33,121 nt of DNA from IMG/VR virus record IMGVR_UViG_2874945390_000004; one strand, given 5' to 3'. The notes under the pieces were generated by a model that searched no databases, was not told the DNA's origin, and was given only the letters and a program-made list of their open reading frames with translations. Shown one piece after another: positions 489 through 31,675 of this stretch (positions within the stretch are counted from its first letter, which is position 1; each line of letters starts with the position of its first letter). The translations under genes were made by a program, and so were the position numbers. The DNA is from a virus (lineage: Duplodnaviria > Heunggongvirae > Uroviricota > Caudoviricetes).

Positions 489-515
489 AAAAAATAAGCC
501 CGTGTAAGGGAGATT
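489..515. repeat. attL core: 27-bp direct repeat identical to 31589..31615
   Basis: AAAAAATAAGCCCGTGTAAGGGAGATT occurs exactly at 489..515 and 31589..31615, bracketing the phage gene block with int adjacent to the left copy. Confidence 0.8.
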
Positions 516-594
516 TAGGGTGTCACCAGTAGGGGCTTTCAACGGTACAATGCGGGTTTGAGCGGCATAAATTACCACTGAAAGCCCTTAAACG

Positions 595-1723: not shown

Positions 1724-2023
1724 TTAACCAGTCTTTTGACCGGAGTGGGGCGACGTTGTTTCGTTTTGCCCAAAGTGTGCGAGAGCGGGCGCAATTTGCC
1801 CGGCTTCTGGAGCTACCTGATCAGTCATGAACCACAAAGTATATTTAGTAAATCTGGGATGTTGTAAGACCTTCATTATGGCTTCAACTCCAGCGTTTTT
1901 TGACCGGCTCTCATAGCTCGAAAGTGAGCTGTAGGCTACACCAGTTAATTCACTGAATTCTTTACGGTTTAACCTTTCAGATTCACGGATTAGCTTCAAC
2001 TTCTCCGAAACGTCTATTGACAT
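1724..2023 (-). CDS. C: Immunity repressor C (99 aa, HTH)
   Basis: Start chosen at the internal ATG (MSIDVSEKLKLIRESE...) with a GGAG ribosome-binding site. The C-terminus QIAPALAHFGQNETTSPHSGQKTG matches P2 C as recalled. Divergent from cox. Confidence 0.85.
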   Translation of the reverse strand: MSIDVSEKLKLIRESERLNRKEFSELTGVAYSSLSSYESRSKNAGVEAIMKVLQHPRFTKYTLWFMTDQVAPEAGQIAPALAHFGQNETTSPHSGQKTG

Positions 2024-2144: not shown

Positions 2145-2420
2145 ATGAATAGACAGCTTGTAAGCGTGACTGATGCCGTGCCTTATCAGGAGTTTGCAAA
2201 ACTCATTGGTAAAACTCCAAGAGCTGTAAGGGGCATGATTGAGAAAGGGAAATTACCAGTTATTGAGATTACTGACCCTCAGTCAGTATCGGGGCGTGCT
2301 GGTGAATATTGGGTATACCTTCCGGCATGGAATAACGGACTAAAACTGGCTTATGAAAGCCGTCCTAAAGAGATTCGTGACGGCTGGTTGATGTGGTTAG
2401 GTCTCGGTGAACCACGTTAA
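2145..2420 (+). CDS. cox: Cox (excisionase / control of excision, 91 aa)
   Basis: 91-aa ORF divergent from C with an AAGGGAG ribosome-binding site; size and sequence (MNRQLVSVTDAVPYQEFAKLIGKTPRAVRGMIEKGKLP) match P2 Cox as recalled. Confidence 0.9.
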   Translation: MNRQLVSVTDAVPYQEFAKLIGKTPRAVRGMIEKGKLPVIEITDPQSVSGRAGEYWVYLPAWNNGLKLAYESRPKEIRDGWLMWLGLGEPR

Positions 2421-3386: not shown

Positions 3387-3688
3387 TGTCCTGTTCTCGT
3401 TCAGTTGTTTTACTGAACAATGCCTTAAAAATCGCCGTTATGAAAAATGGCGATTTGTCTCTTATTCAACTTGGTCTTGATAAAGAAAAACGCGAAATAA
3501 CTGAATCTGTTATCGCGATTTATCAGAGTGAATTAAACCTCCTGTCTGATGTGGTCAATTTACTTGTTAAACGCGCTGTATTTCACAAGCAAATTTCCTC
3601 CGTGGATGAACTGACGAAATTAACGACAGAAATCGCCAGCTATTGCGCTGATGAATTTAAAAAACTGAACGACAAAAGGAACTGGTAA
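3383..3688 (+). CDS. Hypothetical early protein (101 aa), P2 orf81 position
   Basis: ORF translationally coupled to the preceding one (overlapping stop and start). Confidence 0.6.
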
Positions 3689-3912
3689 TGCCGGACAACG
3701 TAGATTTTATTCAGGAACAACAGGCTGAATTACTGGAGCGCCAGATTAACGCGGCAAGGGTAAAACATTGCGGTGCTTCTGCGCTGGTTTGCGAAGAGTG
3801 TGACGCGCCAATACCTGCTGCCCGTCGTGCGGCTTATCCGTCAGCCACGCGTTGTGTTTCCTGTCAGGCAGTCTTTGAAGCAAAAAACAAACATTACCGG
3901 AGAACGGCATGA
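3688..3912 (+). CDS. TraR/DksA-type C4 zinc-finger protein (74 aa), P2 orf82 position
   Basis: CxxC...CxxC spacing (CEEC...CVSC) typical of the TraR/DksA zinc-finger family; start coupled to the upstream stop. Confidence 0.6.
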   Translation: MPDNVDFIQEQQAELLERQINAARVKHCGASALVCEECDAPIPAARRAAYPSATRCVSCQAVFEAKNKHYRRTA

Positions 3913-4184
3913 GTATTCGTATTGAAATTGGCGAACGTTATGTCGTTACCAGTGACAGCTTTCAGTTTATTCTCCACGAGAAAAAGAGAGCGGAAAGCGG
4001 TAAAAACGCCGGTCAGGAATGGCTGTCGGTGGTTGGTTATTACCCGAAATTAAGCCAGCTCGTTTCCGGCCTGATGCATCACGATATTCTGACCGGAAGC
4101 GCAAAGTCTTTTGCTGATTTAAACGCGCAGGTTGAGCAACTCAGCAAGCGTTGTTCAGAGGCTTTTGGCTCATATGGCCGTTAA
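3909..4184 (+). CDS. Hypothetical early protein (91 aa), P2 orf83 position
   Basis: ORF whose last codons overlap the start of A. Confidence 0.6.
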   Translation: MSIRIEIGERYVVTSDSFQFILHEKKRAESGKNAGQEWLSVVGYYPKLSQLVSGLMHHDILTGSAKSFADLNAQVEQLSKRCSEAFGSYGR

Positions 4185-6459
4185 AGCCTCCGGGCGTTTT
4201 GTCCCTCCGTCAGCATTTGCCGCAGGCACCGGTGAGACGTTTACCGGTGCTTATGCATGGAACGCGCCACGCGAGGCCGTCGGGCGAGAAAGACCTCTTA
4301 CACGTGACGAGATGCGTCAGGTGCAAGGTGTTTTATCCACGATAAATCGCCTGCCTTATTTTTTGCGCTCGCTGTTTACTTCACGCTATGACTACATCCG
4401 GCGCAATAAAAGCCCGGTGCACGGGTTTTATTTCCTCACATCCACTTTTCAGCGTCGTTTATGGCCGCGTATTGAGCGTGTGAATCAGCGCCATGAAATG
4501 AACACCGACGCGTCGTTGCTGTTTTTGGCAGAGCGTGACCACTATGCACGCCTGCCGGGAATGAATGACAAGGAGCTGAAAAAGTTTGCCGCCCGTATCT
4601 CATCGCAGCTTTTCATGATGTATGAGGAACTCTGCGATGCCTGGGTGGATGCGCATGGCGAAAAAGAATCGCTGTTTACGGATGAGGCGCAGGCTCACCT
4701 GTATGGTCATGTTGCTGGCGCTGCACGTGCTTTCAATATTCCCCCTCTCTACTGGAAAAAATACCGTAAAGGGCAGATGACCACGAGGCAGGCATATTCT
4801 GCCATTGCCCGTCTGTTTAACGATGAGTGGTGGACTCATCAGCTTAAAGGCCAGCGTATGCGTTGGCATGAGGCGTTACTGATTGCTGTCGGGGAGGTAA
4901 ATAAAGACCGTTCACCTTATGCCAGTAAACATGCTATTCGTGATGTGCGTGCGCGCCGCCAGGCAAATCTGGAATTTCTTAAATCGTGTGACCTTGAAAA
5001 CAGGGAAACCGGCGAACGCATCGACCTTATCAGTAAGGTGATGGGCAGTATTTCTAATCCAGAAATTCGCCGGATGGAGCTGATGAACACCATCGCCGGA
5101 ATTGAGCGTTACGCCGCCGCAGAGGGTGATGTGGGGATGTTTATCACGCTGACCGCGCCGTCAAAGTATCACCCGACACGTCAGGTCGGAAAAGGCGAAA
5201 GTAAAACCGTCCAGCTTAATCACGGCTGGAACCATGAGGCATTTAATCCAAAGGATGCGCAGCGTTATCTCTGCCGTATCTGGAGCCTGATGCGCACGGC
5301 ATTCAAGGATAATGATTTACAGGCCTACGGTTTGCGTGTCGTTGAGCCACACCACGACGGAACGCCGCACTGGCATATGATGCTTTTTTGTAATCCACGC
5401 CAGCGTAACCAGATTATTGAAATCATGCGTCGCTACGCGCTCAAAGAGGATGGAGACGAAAGAGGAGCTGCGCGAAACCGTTTTCAGGCAAAACACCTTA
5501 ACCGGGGCGGTGCTGCGGGATATATCGCGAAATACATTTCAAAAAACATCGACGGCTATGCACTGGATGGTCAGCTCGATAACGATACCGGCAGGCCGCT
5601 GAAAGACACTGCCGCGGCTGTTACCGCATGGGCGTCAACGTGGCGCATTCCGCAATTTAAAACGGTTGGCCTGCCGACAATGGGGGCTTACCGTGAACTA
5701 CGCAAATTGCCTCGCGGCGTCAGCATTGCTGATGAGTTTGACGAACGCGTCGAGGCTGCACGCGCTGCCGCAGACAGTGGCGATTTTGCGCTGTATATCA
5801 GCGCGCAGGGTGGGGCAAATGTCCCGCGCGATTGTCAGACTGTCAGGGTCGCCCGTAGCCCGTCGGATGACGTTAACGAGTACGAGGAAGAGGTCGAGAG
5901 AGTGGTCGGCATTTACGCGCCGCATCTCGGTGCGCGTCATATTCATATCACCAGAACGACGGACTGGCGCATTGTGCCGAAAGTACCGGTCGTTGAGCCT
6001 TTGACTTTAAAAAGCGGCATCGCCGCGCCTCGGAGTCCTGTCAATAACTGTGGAAAGCTCACCGGTGGTGATACTTCGTTACCGGCTCCCACACCTTCTG
6101 AGCACGCCGCAGCAGTGCTTAATCTGGTTGATGACGGTGTTATCGAATGGAGTGACCCGGAGGTCGTGAGGGCGCTCAGAGGTGCATTAAAACACGGTCG
6201 GAGAACGCCAGGTCGTCAGCAAAGAAACGGAAGCCCGTTAAAACCACATGAAATTGCACCATCGGCCAGACTGACCCGGTCGGAAAGAATGCAAATTACC
6301 CGTATCCGCGTTGACCTTGCTCAGAACGGTATCAGGCCTCAGCGATGGGAGCTTGAGGCGCTGGCGCGTGGAGCGACCGTAAATTATGACGGGAAAAAAT
6401 TCACGTATCCGGTCGCTGATGAGTGGCCGGGATTCTCAACAGTAATGGAGTGGACATAA
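4174..6459 (+). CDS. A: Replication initiation endonuclease A (rolling-circle initiator, 761 aa)
   Basis: Start placed at MAVKASGRFVPPSAF (ATG 4174), giving 761 aa as in P2 gpA; contains the HUH-type region (PHWHMMLF) and an AAGYIAKYISK motif. Confidence 0.95.
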   Translation: MAVKASGRFVPPSAFAAGTGETFTGAYAWNAPREAVGRERPLTRDEMRQVQGVLSTINRLPYFLRSLFTSRYDYIRRNKSPVHGFYFLTSTFQRRLWPRIERVNQRHEMNTDASLLFLAERDHYARLPGMNDKELKKFAARISSQLFMMYEELCDAWVDAHGEKESLFTDEAQAHLYGHVAGAARAFNIPPLYWKKYRKGQMTTRQAYSAIARLFNDEWWTHQLKGQRMRWHEALLIAVGEVNKDRSPYASKHAIRDVRARRQANLEFLKSCDLENRETGERIDLISKVMGSISNPEIRRMELMNTIAGIERYAAAEGDVGMFITLTAPSKYHPTRQVGKGESKTVQLNHGWNHEAFNPKDAQRYLCRIWSLMRTAFKDNDLQAYGLRVVEPHHDGTPHWHMMLFCNPRQRNQIIEIMRRYALKEDGDERGAARNRFQAKHLNRGGAAGYIAKYISKNIDGYALDGQLDNDTGRPLKDTAAAVTAWASTWRIPQFKTVGLPTMGAYRELRKLPRGVSIADEFDERVEAARAAADSGDFALYISAQGGANVPRDCQTVRVARSPSDDVNEYEEEVERVVGIYAPHLGARHIHITRTTDWRIVPKVPVVEPLTLKSGIAAPRSPVNNCGKLTGGDTSLPAPTPSEHAAAVLNLVDDGVIEWSDPEVVRALRGALKHGRRTPGRQQRNGSPLKPHEIAPSARLTRSERMQITRIRVDLAQNGIRPQRWELEALARGATVNYDGKKFTYPVADEWPGFSTVMEWT
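6025..6044 (+). other. Candidate replication origin / gpA nick-site region inside the 3' part of A
   Basis: The P2 origin is known to lie inside the A coding sequence; GCGCCTCGGAGTCCTGTCAA matches the nick-site region as I recall it. Exact sequence recall is uncertain. Confidence 0.3.
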
Positions 6460-6911
6460 TGGCAAAAATTCACGAGGTAAAGCTGCACGCGAAATATTTC
6501 GACCTTGTGCTGGAAGGAAAGAAACGTGCAGAGTTCCGGAAAAATGACCGTAATTATGAGCGCGGGGACACGTTGATTTTGCATGAATGGGTGCAGGGTG
6601 TGTATACGGGGCGAAAGGTTGAAGCCCGGATAACAGATGTTACTGACCTGTCAGACTGGCTGGAAGATTATGTCTTGCTAAGTATTGAGCGGCTTAATAC
6701 AGGCGCATGTGAGATTGTGAACTGGAAAGAACTTAGTGAGCGTGGTCTGGTATTCAGAATTAATCATGAAATTATGCATCAGCTCGGCCTTGCTGTTATG
6801 TATGAACCAGAGACGGGGATGTCTGGCGGGGCAATGGTTGCCACGGATGGAGCATGGAACTATTCAGATGAACAGATGGAGCGTGCACAGCAAAACGGGT
6901 GGCTTGGATAA
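6459..6911 (+). CDS. DUF3850 / ASCH-like domain protein (150 aa)
   Basis: Start overlaps the A stop (TAATG). N-terminus KIHEVKLHAKYFDLVLEGKKRAEFRKNDRNYERGDTLILHEW resembles the DUF3850 (ASCH-like) fold family as recalled. Confidence 0.55.
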   Translation: MAKIHEVKLHAKYFDLVLEGKKRAEFRKNDRNYERGDTLILHEWVQGVYTGRKVEARITDVTDLSDWLEDYVLLSIERLNTGACEIVNWKELSERGLVFRINHEIMHQLGLAVMYEPETGMSGGAMVATDGAWNYSDEQMERAQQNGWLG

Positions 6912-7117
6912 TGCACAGAATACCAGGCGAGATACCGCACCATAAAACTAAAAATATCAAGCTGATGGCTATTGTTCAGCGTTTACAGCGGATTATGGTC
7001 AACGAAAATCTGACGCCGGATGAGCTGGTCGGGTGTGCCGAAATAGTACGGGATAATTACGGGCAGCTTAACTATATCGGTCAGTCCAGAGTTGCGCCAC
7101 CACCACGAAGACGATAG
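6911..7117 (+). CDS. Hypothetical protein (68 aa)
   Basis: ATG overlapping the upstream stop (TAATG); no recognisable motif. Confidence 0.4.
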   Translation: MHRIPGEIPHHKTKNIKLMAIVQRLQRIMVNENLTPDELVGCAEIVRDNYGQLNYIGQSRVAPPPRRR

Positions 7118-7340
7118 AGAACGCCGCCAGTCGTGAAACTTGTTTTCAGGGCTGGCGGGGTTGAACAACGAGCGAAGCGAGGCGTTAGTTGACAGACATA
7201 TTTTTACTGCGTTGGTGCCGGTTTTTGACGGTTGAAAGGAGTTAGGTTGGAGAGCTAACAACTTACAAATATTCAAAAGTAAGCATCCTGTTGCTAACAT
7301 GAGGTCGATTTTTTATGTGGATGATGTAAAAAGGATAGCT

Positions 7341-8072
7341 ATGGATACTATAATCGCTTTTCTATCACTCGCTTTTTTCGCTGCTTTCTTCATCGGGTTA
7401 ATCAAGCCATCACTGGTGCGAATGCCAAACCGCAAACGTGCAAGTGCGGTTTATCTCGGAGGAGGTTTTGTATTGAGCATAATTGGTTCAATACTCTATC
7501 CAACAGAAAAAAGCCAGCCAGTTGCTAAAACTGAAACATCAACCGTTGCAGAACACAAAGTCCAAAAAACATTCGAATATGGTGAAAAAACACTCAAGGA
7601 ATATCGGAACGAGTCAAAGAAAACACGACACGATATTGTGAATAGTTACATTGATTTTAAGGAAGTTCCAGCCACCGCGTCAGATGCGTTTTATGCCTGC
7701 ATGAGTGAGTATACATTTACCAAAGATGATGAGTTGAAACTCGGTGATGTTCTTGGGTGGTGCTTTAATGATTATGAAAATGACCCGAATTCACTAAACA
7801 ATAAAATCAATCTTGATACATTTCAGAGTAATTTTAGTGGTTGGGATGGTTCTTATCGTCCATTGGAAAAACTAATTAAAGATAATATGAACGATGATTC
7901 ATCTTATAAACATGTGTCAACGGTATATCATCTGGTTTTGAATAAAGACCCGCATGCCATTGTGAAAACCACGTTTCGCGGAACTAATGCTTATGGAGGA
8001 GTGGTGAAACAGACGATTGCTGCGCGTGTTGATATAAAAACTGGTAAGGTGATATCAATCATAGATAATTGA
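7341..8072 (+). CDS. Uncharacterised membrane-anchored protein (about 243 aa), cargo island 1
   Basis: AT-rich ORF with an AAGGA ribosome-binding site before ATG 7341 (alternative upstream starts at 7299 and 7314). N-terminus has two hydrophobic helices followed by a soluble domain with no motif I recognise. Followed by a terminator. Confidence 0.6.
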   Translation: MDTIIAFLSLAFFAAFFIGLIKPSLVRMPNRKRASAVYLGGGFVLSIIGSILYPTEKSQPVAKTETSTVAEHKVQKTFEYGEKTLKEYRNESKKTRHDIVNSYIDFKEVPATASDAFYACMSEYTFTKDDELKLGDVLGWCFNDYENDPNSLNNKINLDTFQSNFSGWDGSYRPLEKLIKDNMNDDSSYKHVSTVYHLVLNKDPHAIVKTTFRGTNAYGGVVKQTIAARVDIKTGKVISIIDN

Positions 8073-8081
8073 TATCTTACA

Positions 8082-8122
8082 ATGCCGACGCTGAATATTT
8101 AATTGGGTGTCGGCATTTTTTT
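8082..8122 (+). terminator. Rho-independent terminator
   Basis: 8-bp stem ATGCCGAC/GTCGGCAT followed by a run of seven T. Confidence 0.7.
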
Positions 8123-8182
8123 GACTATTAGAGCGGCAGAACCGAGATTTGTTACGTATGAGATTAGCACTGCGAGAATGTT

Positions 8183-8965
8183 ATGAAAGTTATAAACCAA
8201 CTTAAGAAGTTTGATAAGAAAAGAACGCCAGATGATGGCCGTATTAGTTTGTTATATGAAAACGCGATTAAGTATGATATGTACTCTGTATATATTAAAG
8301 ATAAAAATGATACAGAATACCTCTTTGACTGTTTGGTTGATGGGAAGATAAAGGCTTTTAAATGGGATGATGAGGAGCGTAGATTTCATATAAGTTCATA
8401 CTTGGATATTTCTGAGCTTACGCCTGATTCTTTTTTTGGTGTTTATTACTACCGTGCGCATGAGTTGCGATTTAACTCTTTAAATGATTTAACCTTTTTA
8501 AGGGAGTTGTTTTTTAGAGTGAAGTCTAATTATGAAAATATAAAGTTTAGTCGTGAAAAATATATTTATCGACAGCAAAAAAAAGAAATAATTGATGTGA
8601 TGCTTGTTCTCTCAACGATTATAAGAATGTATCGTGAACGGGATGCTGAAACTGTGTTTAGTGAGTTTTCAATAATGGCCGAAGTCGCTGGTAGTTTATG
8701 GGTATACCATGACGATAAAAACAGGATGCGTAAAGAGCTTCGTTTATGCCTGAATTCTCTTGTTCAGAATGGAGATCTTGTTGAAACAAGTAGTGGATTT
8801 AGGCTAACAGGAAAGGCACTGAACACAATATCTACATTCAATAAAGATGAGTTGCGGTACAGAGAGAATTTGAGCACTCAGAAGAAAATGTTTTGGGCTA
8901 CTTTTTTCGCAGCAGTCGGCGGCGTAGGAAGTATGATTGCAGCTATAATAGGGCTTCTAAAATGA
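8183..8965 (+). CDS. Uncharacterised protein with C-terminal transmembrane anchor (260 aa), cargo island 1
   Basis: AT-rich ORF; C-terminal hydrophobic segment MFWATFFAAVGGVGSMIAAIIGLL; no recognisable catalytic motif. Separate transcription unit after the terminator. Confidence 0.6.
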   Translation: MKVINQLKKFDKKRTPDDGRISLLYENAIKYDMYSVYIKDKNDTEYLFDCLVDGKIKAFKWDDEERRFHISSYLDISELTPDSFFGVYYYRAHELRFNSLNDLTFLRELFFRVKSNYENIKFSREKYIYRQQKKEIIDVMLVLSTIIRMYRERDAETVFSEFSIMAEVAGSLWVYHDDKNRMRKELRLCLNSLVQNGDLVETSSGFRLTGKALNTISTFNKDELRYRENLSTQKKMFWATFFAAVGGVGSMIAAIIGLLK

Positions 8966-9125
8966 GCCAACAAAATCGTATGATGAAGTATTGAGTGAAA
9001 AGCATTCTTTATATGCATTATTTTGCATGCAACATATGCTATACATTTTAGCTATGAATTGTCAGACGTGGCAGTACTTCTGTATGGTAATGCAACTGCA
9101 TTAAAACCGCCCCATGAAGCGGGCG

Positions 9126-9144
9126 GGCGAGGCGGGGAAAGCAC
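9126..9144. other. cos site (19-nt cohesive-end sequence GGCGAGGCGGGGAAAGCAC)
   Basis: Exact match to the P2 cohesive-end sequence as recalled, located upstream of the Q/P packaging genes as expected for P2. Confidence 0.75.
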
Positions 9145-9285
9145 TGCGCGCTGGCGGTGGTGCTGATTTTATTTTTTCAGCGTCTGAGCGCGTCGTGATG
9201 GCGTTTAGATTGTTCGCCGGGGCGTTGGCGTGTATGCGGGCTGTTTTGTGCGGTGGTGAGCGTGTGAGGGCGTGATGACGGGGTG

Positions 9286-9309
9286 TAAAAAAGCCGCCCG
9301 CAGGCGGCG
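9286..9309 (-). terminator. Rho-independent terminator downstream of Q
   Basis: On the minus strand, GC-rich stem GCCGCCTGCGGGCGGC followed by a T run, immediately 3' of the Q stop. Confidence 0.6.
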
Positions 9310-20983: not shown

Positions 20984-23302
20984 ATGAGCACAAAATTCAG
21001 AACCGTTATCACCACTGCCGGTGCAGCAAAGCTGGCAGCGGCAACCGCACCGGGAGGGCGGAAGGTCAACATTACCACGATGGCCGTCGGGGATGGCGGT
21101 GGTAAATTGCCTGTCCCGGATGCCGGACAGACCGGGCTTATCCACGAAGTCTGGCGACATACGCTGAACAAAATCAGCCAGGACAAACGAAACAGTAATT
21201 ATATTATCGCAGAGCTGGTTATTCCGCCGGAGGTGGGCGGTTTCTGGATGCGTGAGCTTGGCCTGTACGATGATGCGGGAACGTTAATTGCCGTGGCGAA
21301 CATGGCCGAAAGTTATAAGCCAGCTCTTGCCGAAGGCTCAGGGCGTTCGCAGACCTGTCGCATGGTCATCATCGTCAGCAGTGTGGCCTCGGTGGAGCTG
21401 ACCATTGACACCACAACGGTGATGGCGACACAGGATTACGTTGATGACAAAATTGCAGAGCACGAACAGTCACGACGTCACCCGGACGCCTCGCTGACCG
21501 CAAAAGGTTTTACTCAGTTAAGCAGTGCGACCAACAGCACGTCTGAAACACTGGCCGCAACGCCGAAAGCGGTAAAGGCCGCCTATGACCTTGCTAACGG
21601 GAAATATACCGCACAGGACGCTACCACAGCGCGAAAAGGTCTTGTCCAGCTCAGTAGTGCCACCAACAGCACGTCTGAAACGCTTGCGGCAACGCCAAAG
21701 GCGGTTAAGACAGCGTATGACCTTGCTAACGGGAAATACACTGCACAGGACGCCACTACAGCGCGAAAAGGTCTTGTCCAGCTCAGTAGCGCCACCAACA
21801 GCGATTCTGAAACGCTTGCGGCAACACCAAAGGCGGTTAAGACAGCGTATGACCTTGCTAACGGGAAATACACTGCACAGGATGCCACCACAGCGCGAAA
21901 AGGTCTTGTCCAGCTAAGTAGTGCCATCAACAGCGATTCTGAAACGCTGGCCGCAACGCCAAAAGCAGTGAAGTCTGCCTATGACAATGCTGAAAAACGT
22001 CTTCAGAAAGATCAGAACGGTGCGGATATTCCGGGAAAGGATACCTTCACGAAAAATATCGGTGCCTGTCGTGCTTATAGCGGCGCTTTGAGCACTGAAG
22101 CCGGAAACTGGACAACCGCTCAGTTTATTGAATGGCTGGATTCCCGTGGTGCATTTAATCATCCGTACTGGATGTGCAAAGGCTCCTGGTCATATGCAAA
22201 TAACAAAATCATTACGGATACCGGATGTGGTGATATCCACCTGGCTGGTTGTGTCGTCGAGGTCATGGGAACAAAATCTGCAATCACTATTCGAGTGACC
22301 ACGCCGACAACATCAAGCGGTGGCGGTACAACCAGCGCGCAATTCACTTACATTAATCATGGGGACGGCTACTCCCCCGGCTGGCGTCGTGACTGGAATC
22401 GTCAGGGCGACGCAATGACCGGAACGATTAATCAGGATGGCGGAAGCCAGAATGCCTATATGTCTACGGCCTTATGTTCAGGCACCAGAGGCGGCAAAAA
22501 ATATCTCAGAAAGTTTCGTGGTGGAGAAGGAGACACTATCTGGCATGAAACAGTGCAGGGCGGGGTAATTCGCTGGGCGACAGGAAACTATGACGCTCAG
22601 GAAGAATTATCACTCAGCTCTGCTTATGGTCTTCGTTCAAGAGGTGAAATTACATCACTCAGTGCTAATGGTCTGCGCATTGCTTATGGCAATTATGGAT
22701 TCTTTATCAGGAATGATGGTGGCAGCACATATTTAATGCTGACGGCCTCTGGTGATAAATTTGGGACATGGAACGGTTTAAGGCCGCTGACTATCAATAA
22801 CGCTAATGGCGGAGTGTCAATGGGGCATGGCCTGAGTGTTACTGGTGATATTGCCTCAAGTACCAAAGTACGTGCCGGTAGCGGGAAAAAGTTCACGGTC
22901 AGCAGCAGCAATACATCCACGAAGGAAGCCGCATTCAATTTGTGGGGAAACTCAAGTCGTCCTGTGGTGGCTGAATTAGGTGATGATGCAGGCTGGCATT
23001 TTTACAGTCAGAGAAATACAGATAACAGCATCACTTTTGCTGTTAACGGGCAGGTATCACCATCTAACTATAGTAATTTTGATTCACGCTATGTCCGGGA
23101 TATCCGGCTTGGTGGTGCTGCCACATACAAACCTGCGAACAATGGCATGACATGGACACATCAGGCACCGTCCGGGTGTGTATATTCCGGCATTATTGTT
23201 CAGGATACCGGCTCAAACTCTGCCGATAACATTGGTGGCATATATTACAGACCGGTGCAGAAATACATTAACGGGACTTGGTATAACGTGGCGCAGGTAT
23301 AA
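20984..23302 (+). CDS. H: Tail fibre protein H (772 aa) with an expanded internal tandem repeat and a divergent C-terminal receptor-binding region
   Basis: N-terminal about 170 aa match P2 gpH (MSTKFRTVITTAGAAKLAAATAPGG...), followed by repeats of QLSSATNSTSETLAATPKAVKxAYDLANGKYTAQDATTARKGLV and a lower-GC C-terminal domain. Longer than the 669 aa I recall for P2 gpH. Confidence 0.9.
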   Translation: MSTKFRTVITTAGAAKLAAATAPGGRKVNITTMAVGDGGGKLPVPDAGQTGLIHEVWRHTLNKISQDKRNSNYIIAELVIPPEVGGFWMRELGLYDDAGTLIAVANMAESYKPALAEGSGRSQTCRMVIIVSSVASVELTIDTTTVMATQDYVDDKIAEHEQSRRHPDASLTAKGFTQLSSATNSTSETLAATPKAVKAAYDLANGKYTAQDATTARKGLVQLSSATNSTSETLAATPKAVKTAYDLANGKYTAQDATTARKGLVQLSSATNSDSETLAATPKAVKTAYDLANGKYTAQDATTARKGLVQLSSAINSDSETLAATPKAVKSAYDNAEKRLQKDQNGADIPGKDTFTKNIGACRAYSGALSTEAGNWTTAQFIEWLDSRGAFNHPYWMCKGSWSYANNKIITDTGCGDIHLAGCVVEVMGTKSAITIRVTTPTTSSGGGTTSAQFTYINHGDGYSPGWRRDWNRQGDAMTGTINQDGGSQNAYMSTALCSGTRGGKKYLRKFRGGEGDTIWHETVQGGVIRWATGNYDAQEELSLSSAYGLRSRGEITSLSANGLRIAYGNYGFFIRNDGGSTYLMLTASGDKFGTWNGLRPLTINNANGGVSMGHGLSVTGDIASSTKVRAGSGKKFTVSSSNTSTKEAAFNLWGNSSRPVVAELGDDAGWHFYSQRNTDNSITFAVNGQVSPSNYSNFDSRYVRDIRLGGAATYKPANNGMTWTHQAPSGCVYSGIIVQDTGSNSADNIGGIYYRPVQKYINGTWYNVAQV
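21515..21985 (+). repeat. Tandem repeat of 132 bp (44 codons), about 3.5 copies, inside H
   Basis: Near-identical units start at 21515, 21647, 21779 and 21911 (partial). The repeat also produces the spurious mirrored ORFs on both strands at 21583..21930. Confidence 0.9.
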
Positions 23303-25365: not shown

Positions 25366-25682
25366 TTACATTCCTTAAATAAAAAACATTAATGGTTGCT
25401 CCAAAAATACTAGCAACCTTATTTCAGTGAAGTCAATTTTTTAACATTAATCATTTACACACGCTTGAAAAGTGATCGCTGAAAATGGCATTTACTACAT
25501 TATCAAAGTTCCCATCGAAGATAATCGAAATTTTTCCCGGTAGCAGATATCGTGAGATTTAACGCTTTTCGCTCATAGCAGGCTGTCAGATTTGATAGCG
25601 TTTGGGCTATGTAAACTGTCAGTCGGAAAATGAGTGTGTACAAATCAGGACATGCGGGCGAATTGCCCGCATTTTCTTTATC

Positions 25683-25702
25683 TGTTGTTTCATCCACTGA
25701 CC
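25683..25702 (+). promoter_or_regulatory. Candidate late-promoter activator site upstream of FI
   Basis: TGTTGTTTCATCCACTGACC about 90 bp upstream of the FI ATG; shares the TGTTGT-N-ACC pattern with the O and V upstream elements. Confidence 0.35.
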
Positions 25703-25775
25703 AGCCAGGTCAAATAGCGTCTCATGCACTGCCCAACAGAAAATAGTTGCACCCATTAACCACGGAGTTAAACGG

Positions 25776-26606
25776 ATGAGTGACTATCATCACGGCGTGC
25801 AGGTGCTGGAGATTAACGACGGCACCCGCGTCATTTCCACCGTATCCACTGCCATTGTCGGCATGGTCTGCACGGCCAGCGATGCGGATGCGGAAACCTT
25901 CCCCCTCAATAAACCGGTGCTGATTACCAATGTGCAGAGCGCAATTGCAAAGGCCGGTAAAAAAGGCACGCTGGCGGCATCGTTGCAGGCCATCGCCGAC
26001 CAGTCAAAACCGGTCACCGTTGTCGTGCGTGTGGAAGACGGCACCGGCGACGACGAGGAAACGAAACTCGCGCAGACCGTTTCCAATATCATCGGCACCA
26101 CCGACGAAAACGGTCAGTACACCGGACTGAAAGCCCTGCTGGCGGCGGAGTCGGTAACCGGTGTTAAACCGCGTATTCTCGGCGTGCCGGGACTGGACAC
26201 CAAAGAGGTGGCTGTTGCACTGGCATCAGTCTGTCAGAAGCTGCGCGCTTTCGGGTATATCAGCGCATGGGGCTGTAAGACCGTTTCCGAGGTGAAAGCC
26301 TACCGTCAGAATTTCAGCCAGCGTGAGCTGATGGTCATCTGGCCGGATTTCCTCGCATGGGATACGGTCGCCAGTACCACCGCCACCGCGTATGCCACCG
26401 CCCGTGCGCTGGGTCTGCGCGCTAAAATCGACACCGGCGAGGGTAAACAGGGAGAAGACACCGAGTCGAAAATCTCCGTGGTCTGCACCTATTTCCGGCT
26501 GACGATGGACGGTAAGGAGCTGGTCGAAATCGACACCATCAACATGATTGAGAAGGTGAACGGCGTCGACCGGCTGGAGCAACACCGCCGCAATATCGGC
26601 CTGTAA
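25776..26606 (+). CDS. FI: Tail sheath FI N-terminal portion fused in frame to the tail tube FII C-terminus (276 aa; deletion derivative)
   Basis: The first ~230 aa match P2 sheath gpFI (MSDYHHGVQVLEINDGTRVISTVSTAIVGMV...ARALGLRAKID). The sequence then continues as TGEGKQGEDTESKISVVCTYFRLTMDGKELVEIDTINMIEKVNGVDRLEQHRRNIGL, which I recall as the C-terminus of P2 tube protein FII. E follows directly and no separate FII gene is present. Confidence 0.75.
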   Translation: MSDYHHGVQVLEINDGTRVISTVSTAIVGMVCTASDADAETFPLNKPVLITNVQSAIAKAGKKGTLAASLQAIADQSKPVTVVVRVEDGTGDDEETKLAQTVSNIIGTTDENGQYTGLKALLAAESVTGVKPRILGVPGLDTKEVAVALASVCQKLRAFGYISAWGCKTVSEVKAYRQNFSQRELMVIWPDFLAWDTVASTTATAYATARALGLRAKIDTGEGKQGEDTESKISVVCTYFRLTMDGKELVEIDTINMIEKVNGVDRLEQHRRNIGL

Positions 26607-26662
26607 TTTTCATCCGGTCAGCCTGGCTGACCGGTTAACCCCGATTCAGAAGTGAGAAAACC

Positions 26663-26938
26663 ATGAACAAAGAAAATGTGATTACCCTGGACAATCCGGT
26701 CAAGCGTGGTGAGCAGGTTATCGAACAGGTCACGCTGATGAAACCCAGTGCGGGGACGCTGCGCGGTGTCAGTCTGGCTGCGGTCGCAAACTCAGAAGTC
26801 GATGCACTGATTAAGGTGCTGCCGCGCATGACGGCACCGATGCTGACCGAGCAGGAAGTCGCCGCGCTGGAACTGCCTGACCTTGTGGCGCTGGCCGGTA
26901 AGGTGGTCGGTTTTTTGTCGCCGAACTCGGTGCAGTGA
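26663..26938 (+). CDS. E: Tail assembly chaperone E (91 aa)
   Basis: MNKENVITLDNPVKRGEQVIEQVTLMKPSAG...; 91 aa as in P2 gpE. Confidence 0.85.
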   Translation: MNKENVITLDNPVKRGEQVIEQVTLMKPSAGTLRGVSLAAVANSEVDALIKVLPRMTAPMLTEQEVAALELPDLVALAGKVVGFLSPNSVQ

Positions 26939-27090
26939 CGCTTCCGAAAAATCTGTCGGTCGATGACCTGATGGCGGATGTGGCAGTGATATTTCACTGG
27001 CCGCCATCAGAACTGTATCCCATGAGCCTGACCGAACTCATCACATGGCGCGAAAAGGCGCTCAGGCGAAGCGGAAACACGAATGAGTAA
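26663..27090 (+). CDS. E': E+E' tail assembly chaperone made by programmed -1 ribosomal frameshift (142 aa)
   Basis: Slippery sequence G GTT TTT TG at 26910..26917 near the end of E. The -1 frame stays open to TAA at 27088..27090, overlapping the T start, giving 142 aa as for P2 E+E'. Confidence 0.7.
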
Positions 27091-29530
27091 CAATGTAAAA
27101 TTACAGGTATTGCTCAGGGCTGTTGACCAGGCGTCCCGCCCGTTTAAATCCATCCGCACAGCGAGTAAGTTGCTGTCGGGGGATATCCGGGAAACACAAA
27201 AATCACTGCGCGAGCTGAACGGTCACGCATCCCGTATTGAGGGATTCCGCAAGACCAGTGCACAGCTCGCCGTGACTGGTCATGCACTTGAAAAGGCACG
27301 GCAGGAGGCCGAAGCCCTTGCCACACAGTTTAAAAACACCGAACGCCCGACCCGTGCTCAGGCGAAAGTGCTGGAATCCGCAAAGCGTGCGGCGGAGGAC
27401 TTACAGGCGAAATATAACCGCCTGACAGATTCCGTTAAACGCCAGCAGCGGGAACTGGCCGCTGTGGGAATTAATACCCGCAATCTTGCACATGATGAGC
27501 AGGGACTGAAAAACCGTATCAGTGAAACCACCGCCCAGCTTAACCGGCAGCGTGACGCGCTGGCGCGTGTCAGTGCGCAACAGGCAAAACTTAACGCAGT
27601 CAAACAGCGTTATCAGGCCGGAAAGGAACTGGCCGGAAATATGGCCTCAGTGGGCGCTGCCGGTGTGGGGATTGCTGCTGCGGGAACGATAGCCGGAGTT
27701 AAGCTGCTGATGCCAGGTTATGAGTTTGCGCAGAAAAACTCAGAATTGCAGGCTGTGCTCGGTGTGGCAAAAGACTCCGCCGAAATGGCTGCACTCCGCA
27801 AGCAGGCGCGCCAGCTCGGTGACAACACCGCCGCCTCAGCGGATGATGCGGCCGGTGCACAGATTATCATTGCGAAAGCGGGTGGGGATGTTGATGCCAT
27901 TCAGGCGGCAACGCCGGTCACGCTGAATATGGCGCTGGCGAACCGCCGCACAATGGAAGAAAACGCCGCCCTGCTGATGGGGATGAAATCCGCCTTTCAG
28001 CTTTCAAACGATAAGGTCGCTCATATCGGGGATGTTCTCTCCATGACGATGAACAAAACCGCCGCTGATTTTGACGGCATGAGCGATGCGCTGACCTATG
28101 CCGCACCAGTGGCAAAAAATGCCGGTGTCAGCATTGAAGAAACCGCCGCAATGGTCGGGGCGCTGCATGATGCAAAAATCACAGGCTCAATGGCGGGGAC
28201 GGGAAGCCGTGCCGTGTTAAGTCGCCTGCAGGCACCGACTGGAAAAGCATGGGATGCACTCAAAGAGCTTGGCGTGAAAACCTCAGACAGTAAGGGAAAC
28301 ACCCGACCAGTATTTACCATTCTGAAAGAAATGCAGGCCAGCTTTGAGAAAAACCGGCTCGGTACTGCCCAGCAGGCCGAATACATGAAAACCATTTTCG
28401 GGGAGGAGGCCAGCTCAGCCGCCGCTGTGCTGATGACTGCCGCGTCAACCGGAAAGCTGGACAAACTGACCGCTGCGTTTAAAGCCTCAGACGGGAAGAC
28501 CGCAGAGCTGGTAAATATCATGCAGGACAACCTCGGCGGTGACTTTAAGGAGTTTCAGTCCGCTTATGAGGCGGTGGGGACAGACCTGTTTGACCAGCAG
28601 GAAGGCGCGCTACGTAAGCTCACGCAGACGGCCACAAAGTATGTGTTAAAACTCGACGGCTGGGTACAGAAAAACAAATCACTGGCGTCAACCATTGGCC
28701 TCATTGCCGGTGGCGCGCTGGCGCTGACTGGCATCATCGGTGCAATTGGTCTTGTAGCCTGGCCGGTTATCACCGGCATCAATGCCATCATCGCGGCAGC
28801 AGGCGCAATGGGGGCAATCTTCACGACGGTTGGTAGTGCCGTTATGACGGCCATCGGGGCGATTAGCTGGCCGGTTGTGGCTGTGGTGGCCGCCATTGTC
28901 GCCGGGGCGTTGCTTATCCGTAAATACTGGGAGCCTGTCAGCGCATTCTTTGGCGGTGTGGTTGAAGGGCTGAAAGCGGCATTTGCGCCGGTGGGGGAGC
29001 TGTTCACGCCACTGAAACCGGTGTTTGACTGGCTGGGCGAAAAGTTACAGGCTGCGTGGCAGTGGTTTAAAAACCTGATTGCCCCGGTCAAAGCCACCCA
29101 GGACACCCTGAACCGTTGCCGTGACACGGGCGTCATGTTCGGGCAGGCACTGGCTGACGCGCTGATGCTGCCGCTTAATGCGTTCAACAAATTGCGCAGC
29201 GGCATTGACTGGGTACTGGAAAAGCTCGGGGTCATCAACAAAGAGTCAGACACACTTGACCAGACCGCCGCCAGAACTCATGCCGCCACGTATGGCACCG
29301 GTGGTTATATTCCGGCGACCAGCTCTTATGCAGGCTATCAGGCTTATCAGCCGGTCACGGCACCGGCTGGCCGCTCTTATGTGGACCAGAGTAAAAACGA
29401 ATATCACATCAGCCTGACGGGTGGTACTGCGCCGGGGACACAGCTTGACCGCCAGTTACAGGATGCGCTCGAAAAATACGAGCGGGATAAACGTGCGCGT
29501 GCCCGTGCCAGCATGATGCATGACGGTTAA
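27083..29530 (+). CDS. T: Tail tape measure protein T (815 aa)
   Basis: 815-aa ORF with coiled-coil-rich N-terminal half and glycine/alanine-rich hydrophobic segments; size equals P2 gpT. Confidence 0.9.
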   Translation: MSNNVKLQVLLRAVDQASRPFKSIRTASKLLSGDIRETQKSLRELNGHASRIEGFRKTSAQLAVTGHALEKARQEAEALATQFKNTERPTRAQAKVLESAKRAAEDLQAKYNRLTDSVKRQQRELAAVGINTRNLAHDEQGLKNRISETTAQLNRQRDALARVSAQQAKLNAVKQRYQAGKELAGNMASVGAAGVGIAAAGTIAGVKLLMPGYEFAQKNSELQAVLGVAKDSAEMAALRKQARQLGDNTAASADDAAGAQIIIAKAGGDVDAIQAATPVTLNMALANRRTMEENAALLMGMKSAFQLSNDKVAHIGDVLSMTMNKTAADFDGMSDALTYAAPVAKNAGVSIEETAAMVGALHDAKITGSMAGTGSRAVLSRLQAPTGKAWDALKELGVKTSDSKGNTRPVFTILKEMQASFEKNRLGTAQQAEYMKTIFGEEASSAAAVLMTAASTGKLDKLTAAFKASDGKTAELVNIMQDNLGGDFKEFQSAYEAVGTDLFDQQEGALRKLTQTATKYVLKLDGWVQKNKSLASTIGLIAGGALALTGIIGAIGLVAWPVITGINAIIAAAGAMGAIFTTVGSAVMTAIGAISWPVVAVVAAIVAGALLIRKYWEPVSAFFGGVVEGLKAAFAPVGELFTPLKPVFDWLGEKLQAAWQWFKNLIAPVKATQDTLNRCRDTGVMFGQALADALMLPLNAFNKLRSGIDWVLEKLGVINKESDTLDQTAARTHAATYGTGGYIPATSSYAGYQAYQPVTAPAGRSYVDQSKNEYHISLTGGTAPGTQLDRQLQDALEKYERDKRARARASMMHDG

Positions 29531-29544
29531 GGAGGTGACGAAAA

Positions 29545-30024
29545 ATGATGCTCGCGTTAGGTATGTTTGTTTTTATGCGCCAGACGCTGCCACACCAGAC
29601 CATGCAGCGTGAATCAGATTATCGCTGGCCGTCAAATTCCCGTATCGGTAAACGGGATGCCTTTCAGTTTCTCGGTGTGGGTGAGGAAAACATGACGCTT
29701 GCCGGCGTGCTTTATCCCGAACTGACCGGCGGGAATCTGACGATGACCACGCTCAGGCTGATGGCAGAGGAAGGCCGGGCGTGGCCGTTGCTGGATGGCA
29801 CCGGCATGATTTACGGCATGTATGTCATCAGCAGGGTGAGTGAAACAGGGAGTATTTTCTTTGCAGACGGCACACCCCGGAAAATTGATTTTACGCTGTC
29901 GCTCACCCGCGTGGATGAATCACTGGCCGCGCTTTATGGCGATATCGGTAAACAGGCGGAATCGCTCATCGGTAAGGCTGGCAGTGTGGCGACCAGATTC
30001 ACGGGTATGACGGGGGCGGGATAA
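29545..30024 (+). CDS. U: Tail protein U (159 aa)
   Basis: MMLALGMFVFMRQTLPHQTMQRESDYRW; 159 aa as in P2 gpU. Confidence 0.9.
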   Translation: MMLALGMFVFMRQTLPHQTMQRESDYRWPSNSRIGKRDAFQFLGVGEENMTLAGVLYPELTGGNLTMTTLRLMAEEGRAWPLLDGTGMIYGMYVISRVSETGSIFFADGTPRKIDFTLSLTRVDESLAALYGDIGKQAESLIGKAGSVATRFTGMTGAG

Positions 30025-31187
30025 TGCTGGATGCGCTGACATTTGATGCAGGCAGTACGCTGACGCCGGATTACATGCTGATGCTCGACAGCAGGGATAT
30101 TACCGGCAATATCAGCGACCGTCTGATGAGCATGACCCTGACGGATAACCGGGGCTTTGAGGCTGACCAGCTTGATATTGAACTGAACGATGCCGACGGG
30201 CAGGTCGAACTGCCGGTTCGTGGTGCTGTTCTGACGGTGTATATCGGCTGGAAAGGTTTTGCCCTGGTATGCAAAGGGAAATTTACCGTTGATGAGGTTG
30301 AACACCGGGGCGCACCGGATGTGGTCACCATCCGCGCCCGGAGTGCAGATTTTCGCGGGACGCTCAATTCCCGCCGTGAAGGCTCATGGCATGACACCAC
30401 GCTCGGTGCGATTGTTGAGGCGATAGCCTCCCGTAACAAGCTGGAAGCCAGTGTCGCGCCGTCACTGGCCGGAATTAAAATCCCGCACATCGACCAGTCG
30501 CAGGAGTCTGATGCGAAATTCCTGACCCGTCTTGCTGAACGCAACGGCGGTGAGGTGTCGGTAAAAATGGGAAAACTGTTGTTTCTCAAAGCGGGGCAGG
30601 GGGTGACGGCCAGCGGTAAAAAAATCCCGCAGGTCACCATAACCCGCAGCGACGGCGACCGCCATCATTTTGCGATTGCTGACCGTGGAGCCTATACCGG
30701 CGTAACGGCAAAGTGGTTACACACCAAAGACCCGAAGCCGCAAAAGCAGAAGGTAAAACTGAAACGCAAAAAGAAAGAGAAACACCTGCGCGCACTGGAG
30801 CACCCGAAAGCGAAACCAGTCACGCAGAAGAAAGCGCCAAAAGTACCGGAAGCGCGCGAAGGTGAATACATGGCTGGTGAGGCTGACAATGTTTTTGCCC
30901 TGACTACGGTATATGCCACAAAAGCGCAGGCCATGCGCGCCGCTCAGGCGAAGTGGGATAAACTGCAACGGGGCGTTGCGGAGTTCTCCATCAGCCTGGC
31001 TACCGGTCGGGCAGATATTTACACGGAAACGCCGGTCAAAGTATCAGGCTTTAAGCGCGTCATAGACGAGCAGGACTGGACAATCACTAAGGTGACACAT
31101 TTTCTGAATAATAGCGGCTTCACGACGTCCTTAGAGCTTGAGGTCATGCTTTCTGATGTGGAGTACGAAACAGAAGATGATGGGTGA
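30024..31187 (+). CDS. D: Late control / tail protein D (387 aa)
   Basis: Start overlaps the U stop (TAATG); 387 aa as in P2 gpD. Confidence 0.9.
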   Translation: MLDALTFDAGSTLTPDYMLMLDSRDITGNISDRLMSMTLTDNRGFEADQLDIELNDADGQVELPVRGAVLTVYIGWKGFALVCKGKFTVDEVEHRGAPDVVTIRARSADFRGTLNSRREGSWHDTTLGAIVEAIASRNKLEASVAPSLAGIKIPHIDQSQESDAKFLTRLAERNGGEVSVKMGKLLFLKAGQGVTASGKKIPQVTITRSDGDRHHFAIADRGAYTGVTAKWLHTKDPKPQKQKVKLKRKKKEKHLRALEHPKAKPVTQKKAPKVPEAREGEYMAGEADNVFALTTVYATKAQAMRAAQAKWDKLQRGVAEFSISLATGRADIYTETPVKVSGFKRVIDEQDWTITKVTHFLNNSGFTTSLELEVMLSDVEYETEDDG

Positions 31188-31268: not shown

Positions 31269-31487
31269 ATGTTTCATTGTCCTTTATGCCAGCATGCCGC
31301 ACATGCGCGTACAAGTCGCTATATCACTGACACGACAAAAGAGCGTTATCACCAGTGCCAGAACGTGAATTGCAGCGCCACGTTCATCACTTATGAGTCG
31401 GTACAGCGATACATCGTGAAGCCGGGAGAAGTCCACGCCGTAAGGCCGCACCCGTTGCCGTCAGGGCAGCAAATTATGTGGATGTAA
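31269..31487 (+). CDS. ogr: Late-gene transcription activator Ogr (zinc finger, 72 aa)
   Basis: Start MFHCPLCQHAAHARTSRYITDTTKERYHQCQNVNCSATF with a GAGGTG ribosome-binding site; Cys4 zinc finger; 72 aa as in P2 Ogr and E. coli OgrK. Confidence 0.9.
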   Translation: MFHCPLCQHAAHARTSRYITDTTKERYHQCQNVNCSATFITYESVQRYIVKPGEVHAVRPHPLPSGQQIMWM

Positions 31488-31588: not shown

Positions 31589-31615
31589 AAAAAATAAGCC
31601 CGTGTAAGGGAGATT
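31589..31615. repeat. attR core: 27-bp direct repeat identical to 489..515; also the 3' terminator end of cyaR
   Basis: Exact 27-bp identity with 489..515; contains the stem-loop and U-tail of the cyaR terminator on the minus strand. Confidence 0.8.
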
Positions 31616-31675
31616 ACACAGGCTAAGGAGGTGGTTCCTGGTACAGCTAGCATTTTATGGGTTATGTTTTTCAGC
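31589..31675 (-). ncRNA. cyaR: CyaR (RyeE) Hfq-dependent small RNA, about 87 nt
   Basis: The minus-strand sequence GCTGAAAAACATAACCCATAAAATGCTAGCTGTACCAGGAACCACCTCCTTAGCCTGTGTAATCTCCCTTACACGGGCTTATTTTTT matches CyaR as recalled, including the CCUCCUU region and intrinsic terminator. It lies between yegQ and ogr as in E. coli. Confidence 0.75.

Follow-up and report, generated by a model that had tools for sequence, protein, structure and literature searches.

In bacteriophage P2, gpFI is the tail sheath protein and gpFII the tail tube protein (NC_001895 record; bioRxiv 10.1101/2023.02.25.529910), and the two are made as separate products of 396 and 172 aa, respectively. The closest solved structures to the product described below are those of the R2 pyocin (PDB 3J9Q, 6PYT), in which the sheath PA0622 (386 aa) and the tube PA0623 (167-168 aa) are likewise separate and complete. 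The locus analysed here occupies the same operon place as P2 FI and FII, between the G/cargo region and E, and shares the upstream region with P2, but in place of two genes it carries a single 276-aa chimera that lacks PF17482 and tube residues 1-115. In a search of the PDB, residues 4-241 of the fusion aligned with residues 3-234 of the 386-residue R2-pyocin sheath (E = 1.4e-22) and residues 207-276 with residues 98-167 of the 167-residue tube (E = 2e-11), covering ~60% and ~40% of the respective chains. We interpret this ORF as the scar of a recent 891-bp direct-repeat deletion that fused FI and FII in a P2-like prophage and disabled its tails in the course of ordinary prophage decay, a reading to which we assign a probability of roughly 0.93.

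Prophage context of the fusion

The DNA analysed (hereafter the window, 33,121 nt at its full length) is identical to CP026836.1 (GCA_002950135.1), an accession listed as S. boydii (PMC12817139), and it contains an entire prophage of the P2-like (Peduovirus) type, inserted beside yegQ/trhP in the chromosome of Shigella boydii/E. coli (Table 1). The right flank consists of ogr followed by host yegQ/trhP, a pair that is annotated ogrK/yegQ in E. coli genomes. When 42 P2 proteins were compared with the window by tblastn, the essential genes proved to be collinear with those of P2, at 93-100% identity apart from the mosaic H and G, and full length except for FI, FII, and P, the last of which is split at residue 54 by a 1-nt homopolymer shift. 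The gene order was that of P2 (int-C-cox-B-A ... Q-P / O-N-M-L-X-Y-K-lys-R-S / V-W-J-I-H-G / FI-FII-E-T-U-D-ogr), while the P2 proteins of orf30, fun(Z), tin, and old gave no tblastn match in the window. Retention of the regulatory genes (int, C, cox, B, A, and ogr) and of both cargo islands, as the original prediction had it, was borne out by the tblastn comparison. The PF region upstream of the fusion also aligned with the annotated PF region of P2, and it is predicted from its sequence to be an active promoter. Downstream of the fusion, the -1 slippery site GGTTTTTTG, which begins at position 26909, was intact in a context exactly that of P2.

Table 1. Positions of the fusion ORF, its parts, and the prophage landmarks around it in the window
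Feature	Position	Strand	Basis
attL core, left prophage end	489..516	+	Exact match to the 28-nt P2 attP core
Undamaged upstream region of the F operon with late promoter (PF) and ribosome-binding site	25565..25775	+	~97% contiguous to plaque-forming P2-like phages
FI::FII fusion ORF, deletion scar	25776..26606	+	ORF list; Pfam; PDB matches
FI-derived part, sheath gene nt 1-657 (codons 1-219)	25776..26432	+	FI of HCM-28C-2, 100% identity
Deletion junction, one kept copy of the 8-bp direct repeat AAATCGAC	26425..26432	+	Overlap of BLAST pieces
FII-derived part, tube gene codons 116-172 and native stop	26433..26606	+	FII of HCM-28C-2; Pfam Phage_tube
E and E+E' tail assembly chaperone genes	26663..27090	+	E 100% identical to P2 gpE
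T, full length	27083..29530	+	tblastn, P2 T 1-815; F-operon T/U/D at 98-99% identity
U, full length	29545..30024	+	tblastn, P2 U 1-159; T/U/D at 98-99% identity
D, full length	30024..31187	+	tblastn, P2 D 1-386/387; T/U/D at 98-99% identity
ogr late-gene activator	31269..31487	+	100% identical to P2 Ogr
attR core, right prophage end, adjoins host yegQ/trhP	31589..31616	+	P2 attP core, 1 mismatch

Several other parts of the prophage diverged from P2. Identity to the P2 proteins fell to only 65% in the repressor C (1727..2023, minus strand) and to 84% in Cox (2145..2417, plus strand), amid neighbouring genes that were 98-100% identical to those of P2, and the immunity specificity of the prophage therefore probably differs from that of P2. 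H (20984..23302) and G were mosaic relative to P2, with the H C-terminus 59% and G 75% identical. H also contained a 132-bp tandem repeat at 21524..21985 (3.5 copies, 90% identity, ~44-aa segments), at which short-read contigs break.

Unrelated low-GC cargo occupied the P2 fun(Z) and tin/old sites. In siblings, the cargo gene at the fun(Z) site (23948..~25365, minus strand, GC ~0.39-0.41) forms one 472-aa ORF (WP_000220361.1, hypothetical). Different cargo occupied the site in some siblings that share the G gene, with a RelA_SpoT protein in one (our locus L040) and an AAA_21/DUF4435 protein in another (L043); the fun(Z) spot is therefore a variable hotspot, possibly one devoted to anti-phage defence. 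The second island (~6900..9300, GC 0.36-0.41), at the tin/old site, comprised ORFs at 7299..8072 and 8183..8965 (both plus strand; ~243-257 and 260 aa), and relatives with the same portal gene had many different genes at this site. No Pfam or PADLOC match was obtained for the cargo proteins of either island.

Anatomy of the fusion ORF

The 276-aa ORF couples codons 1-219 of P2 gpFI to codons 116-172 of gpFII in one reading frame. In tblastn searches of the window, P2 gpFI aligned over residues 1-223, with 96% amino acid identity in the FI-derived part, and gpFII over residues 109-172. In the comparison with the P2 proteins themselves (NC_001895), fusion residues 1-219 were 96% identical to gpFI 1-219 and residues 218-276 matched gpFII 114-172. 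No further FI or FII segment was found in the window with any of the P2 proteins, in agreement with the original prediction that a separate FII gene is missing. That prediction had also assigned the last ~55 residues to FII; their derivation from FII stood, but the count is 57 (59 with the shared I-D included). The ORF ends, as had been noted, 57 bp upstream of the E start (26606 versus 26663).

The domain content of the product pointed to the same composite origin. Pfam searches placed Gp18_domIII_N at aa 26-86 (E = 5.8e-14), Phage_sheath_1 (PF04984) at aa 113-219 (profile positions 1-112 of 168), and Phage_tube (PF04985) at aa 204-275 (profile positions 94-165 of 165, i.e., the final 72). 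Since the parental FI spans the entire Phage_sheath_1 profile (1-168), the subtilisin-like domain is incomplete in the fusion, and since the parental FII spans Phage_tube from 1 to 165, the fusion also lacks a full-length tube domain. PF17482 (Phage_sheath_1C), which the parental FI has at aa 280-382 and which all intact siblings carry, was not found in the fusion by Pfam. The ORF is thus derived from two well-known families and is a functional member of neither. Together with matches of 100% to the intact FI and FII genes of a sibling prophage (see below), the sheath and tube domains confirmed that this is an in-frame FI-FII fusion, as first proposed from the sequence.

Endpoints and size of the deletion

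A megablast search of ~50,000 phage records matched positions 25564..27100 of the window to P2-like phages (R18C, D8, P2 isolates, and others) at ~97%. The match always fell into two pieces, with a span of 2427 bp in intact P2-like phages versus 1536 bp here. As the best proxy for the parental sequence we used the intact prophage of E. coli HCM-28C-2, which agrees with the window in the length of its fibre gene (772 aa) and in its 472-aa cargo gene. Relative to both R18C and HCM-28C-2, the left piece stopped at 26432, the right piece opened at 26425, and 891 bp were missing; the distance from the FI start to the E start was accordingly 887 bp here versus 1778 bp in R18C, close to the roughly 1.8 kb that had been expected. 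The earlier estimate of a ~0.9-kb deletion that removed the C-terminal half of the sheath and most of the tube could thereby be fixed at exactly 891 bp, with tube residues 1-115 gone. The lost DNA comprised FI codons 220-396 plus the stop (534 nt), a 12-nt spacer, and FII codons 1-115 (345 nt).

The two BLAST pieces overlapped by exactly 8 nt when compared with R18C, HCM-28C-2, and eight sibling loci. In the HCM-28C-2 parents, the repeat AAATCGAC occurs once per gene, at FI nt 650-657 and FII nt 338-345. There were no filler bases at the junction, the flanks were 100% identical to those of HCM-28C-2, and positions 26425..26606 showed 100% nucleotide identity to nt 338-519 of its intact FII. 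Because both portions of the ORF match the intact FI and FII of this sibling at 100% nucleotide identity, the resemblance of the ORF to both families is not due to chance. At the protein level the junction corresponds to K-I-D in FI and E-I-D in FII; the short shared motif at which the original prediction had placed the join is, in the DNA, an exact 8-bp repeat and is consistent with a microhomology-mediated deletion.

Deletions between short direct repeats, arising by slippage or in a microhomology-mediated manner, are classically described for lacI in enterobacteria; in such events both copies are present in the parent and one is kept, without filler. The present case showed the same features, with the repeat at both parental endpoints, a single copy left, and nothing inserted, and there is nothing unusual in a repeat of 8 bp. 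FI and FII have 24 different 8-mers in common, however; many other repeats could have served, and the one used is by itself no proof of slippage over other forms of end-joining. Since FI and FII lie in the same frame, any deletion of 3n nucleotides fuses them, and because 891 = 3 x 297 the result is one ORF that opens at the start codon of FI and closes at the stop codon of FII. This in-frame outcome has no special meaning, its prior being about 1/3, and a functional meaning for it was rejected on the basis of that prior and of the independent lesions described below, which are out of frame.

Sibling prophages and other lesions

Look-ups with the prophage's own T, G, and H proteins returned a prophage family whose members are near-identical and, with few exceptions, sit at one and the same chromosomal site; most of them have an FI of 396 aa and an FII of 172 aa (PSSP01000001.1, LSGB01000070.1, SRR8186635, SRR3020569, ERR200279, and others). 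Intact siblings differed from the window by 0 substitutions upstream and by 0-2 substitutions in 6.7 kb downstream, host flank included. Those at the yegQ/ogr site, among them that of E. coli HCM-28C-2, have H, G, and T proteins identical to those of the window, share its 472-aa cargo gene, and diverge from it by 0-3 substitutions per 10 kb, yet they retain the 891 bp. The run accession of one intact sibling, ERR200279, is just 15 away from that of ERR200294, which bears the fusion. Because such near-identical siblings are intact, the deletion happened very recently, in a single sub-lineage to which it is private.

The family also included members that are damaged differently. ABBSSL010000021.1 and SRR4787083 share a +A frameshift at FI codon 244 (nt ~731), outside any homopolymer, and this allele was seen in several samples; ABBSSL010000021.1 has a +A frameshift in W as well. 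FI has therefore been inactivated by two independent events within a near-clonal prophage family. PSSP01000001.1 showed a gap of 486 bp (3 x 162) at window positions 6236..6721, either a real loss or an assembly error, which spans the end of the replication gene A and the start of an orf91/DUF3850 gene and has almost no junction homology. Outside the family, the unrelated strain E. coli GPEC1240 (NZ_CM142783.1; positions 3551..4443 of our locus L003) carries an independent 829-bp out-of-frame FI-FII deletion, the only one of its kind among 5,426 complete E. coli genomes. The 3' part of the sheath gene and the 5' part of the tube gene were lost from a P2-like prophage in this strain also, and PGAP annotates two partial pseudogenes there, but the endpoints differ and the junction homology amounts to a few nucleotides, compared with the 8-bp repeat here. 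Taken together, the lesions are scattered, the pattern of a prophage that is decaying under relaxed selection.

Proposed origin and consequences of the deletion

We propose that the two copies of AAATCGAC, one in FI and one in FII, misaligned during replication, most simply by RecA-independent slippage, and that FI codons 220-396, the 12-nt spacer, and FII codons 1-115 were thereby lost in one recent sub-lineage. The scar would then read as one 276-aa ORF whose chimeric product, without the sheath C-terminal domain and without the N-terminal two-thirds of the tube fold, should serve neither as sheath nor as tube, and contractile tails and infectious particles should not be made. That the prophage should be unable to form infectious particles follows from the roles of gpFI and gpFII. 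The genes for integration, immunity, replication, head formation, and lysis, the other tail genes, and the two cargo islands would all have been kept, and no polar effect on E, T, U, and D is expected, given that the reading frame is preserved. The prophage may well still excise, replicate, assemble heads, and cause lysis, and we infer that the deletion was selectively neutral. P2-type prophages are classically not SOS-inducible, and for that reason induction with mitomycin C, one of the checks suggested in the original prediction, would be a poor test.

Particles could still form despite the loss of FI and FII from this prophage if both proteins came in trans from a second P2-like prophage or from a tailocin-type cluster elsewhere in the genome, a situation that we consider unlikely. 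Many E. coli genomes do contain more than one P2-like element, since places with sheath/tube DNA number up to 6 per genome; an intact element registers as two places with a junction-spanning query, and the median of 2 in the complete E. coli genomes thus corresponds to one element. The other genes of the prophage, its cos-proximal functions, and its att sites also appear intact. The look-ups with the prophage's own proteins, on the other hand, found one place only on CP026836.1, although a divergent second prophage would escape them, and particles completed in trans would still deliver to a new host a genome incapable of making tails.

A different account would make the fusion a selected product rather than the debris of decay. 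The chimera might be expressed from the Ogr/delta-responsive PF as a dominant-negative fragment acting against an incoming phage or satellite, or tail loss itself might be favoured in the host and have been selected repeatedly in the Shigella lineage. In the first version, a heteroimmune P2-like phage or a P4-like satellite would supply Ogr or delta, PF would be switched on, and the chimera would cap sheath or tube polymerisation, making it, if true, an assembly-poisoning defence. The ORF is in frame, with its promoter region intact and its stop native, and two independent FI inactivations have occurred in a nearly clonal family, with the FI-FII deletion of GPEC1240 as a third lesion of the region. 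We nevertheless regard selection as very improbable. The prior of an in-frame outcome is about 1/3, and the reading frame is lost both in the GPEC1240 deletion and in the +A allele. The clustering of lesions is subject to ascertainment bias, the survey having been centred on the FI region. The allele, moreover, is limited to one small sub-lineage: the junction was found in 0 of 5,426 complete E. coli genomes (a collection outside which CP026836.1, labelled S. boydii, falls), even though 1,677 of them have P2-like sheath/tube DNA, and the junction 34-mer had no match in IMG/VR, JGI metagenomes, or GTDB representatives. Finally, with zero sequence divergence since the deletion there has been no time for selection to show.

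Authenticity of the junction

The evidence for the junction consists of assembled sequences, namely CP026836.1 and short-read Logan assemblies; the culture itself may hold a mixed population. The exact 276-aa protein was also encoded on four Logan contigs of 20-50 kb, those of ERR200294 and three similar ones. ERR200294 had the identical junction together with one private synonymous SNP, and it was free of the three homopolymer indels that split the cargo gene in CP026836.1. The deletion is therefore common to at least two distinguishable genomes.

It could be argued that about 0.9 kb was collapsed or passed over when the long reads were assembled and that the true genome has intact FI and FII, as does the sister 5.1-Mb assembly PSSP01000001.1. 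CP026836.1 does appear to contain errors: it has six private 1-nt indels, at ~11958 (P), 16109 (Y), 19154 (V), and 24783, 25098, and 25309 (the cargo gene), all in homopolymer runs and all absent from every sibling that covers those positions. These indels split or extend P (terminase), Y (holin, 127 versus 93 aa), V (221 versus 211 aa), and the 472-aa cargo gene. All six are probably long-read consensus errors; for those in P, Y, and V this is a probable extension from the behaviour of the cargo-gene indels, which are missing from the fusion-bearing ERR200294. In PSSP01000001.1 both P and V are intact, and the P frameshift is probably a consensus error because an extra P base is present in that sister assembly and all relatives and because the six indels are uniformly homopolymeric. 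If errors, such indels would inflate pseudogene counts for CP026836.1. They are, however, slips of 1 nt in homopolymers, not losses of kilobases. Because the same junction occurs in independent assemblies, ERR200294 being distinct from CP026836.1 by its own SNP and by the cargo-gene errors that it lacks, and because an 8-bp repeat is far below the length needed for assembly collapse, we take the deletion to be genuine and consider an artefact highly improbable.

A native sheath variant with a tube-like C-terminus and no deletion, the outcome that the original prediction had named as one that would overturn it and for which the uninterrupted ORF speaks and nothing more, is refuted, since the C-terminal 59 residues are 100% identical at the nucleotide level to sibling FII, no FII gene lies downstream of the ORF by tblastn, and the other 37 members of the 90% protein cluster of the fusion are ordinary sheath fragments cut at contig ends that continue ...RAKIDQEQGWHK..., as do the intact siblings, which carry PF17482.

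Implications

The event is known in kind, a textbook short-direct-repeat deletion in a textbook prophage, and the understanding of contractile tails or of deletions is unchanged by it. For annotation, "sheath/tube fusion pseudogene" is a better label for the ORF than "tail sheath protein", and the prophage is best recorded as defective in particle production, with excision, replication, and lysis possibly kept and with two cargo islands at the P2 variable sites. The deletion also offers a PCR marker for the sub-lineage (0.94 kb versus 1.83 kb). With near-identical siblings that are either intact or differently damaged, this locus provides a clean and datable example of prophage decay in the Shigella lineage.
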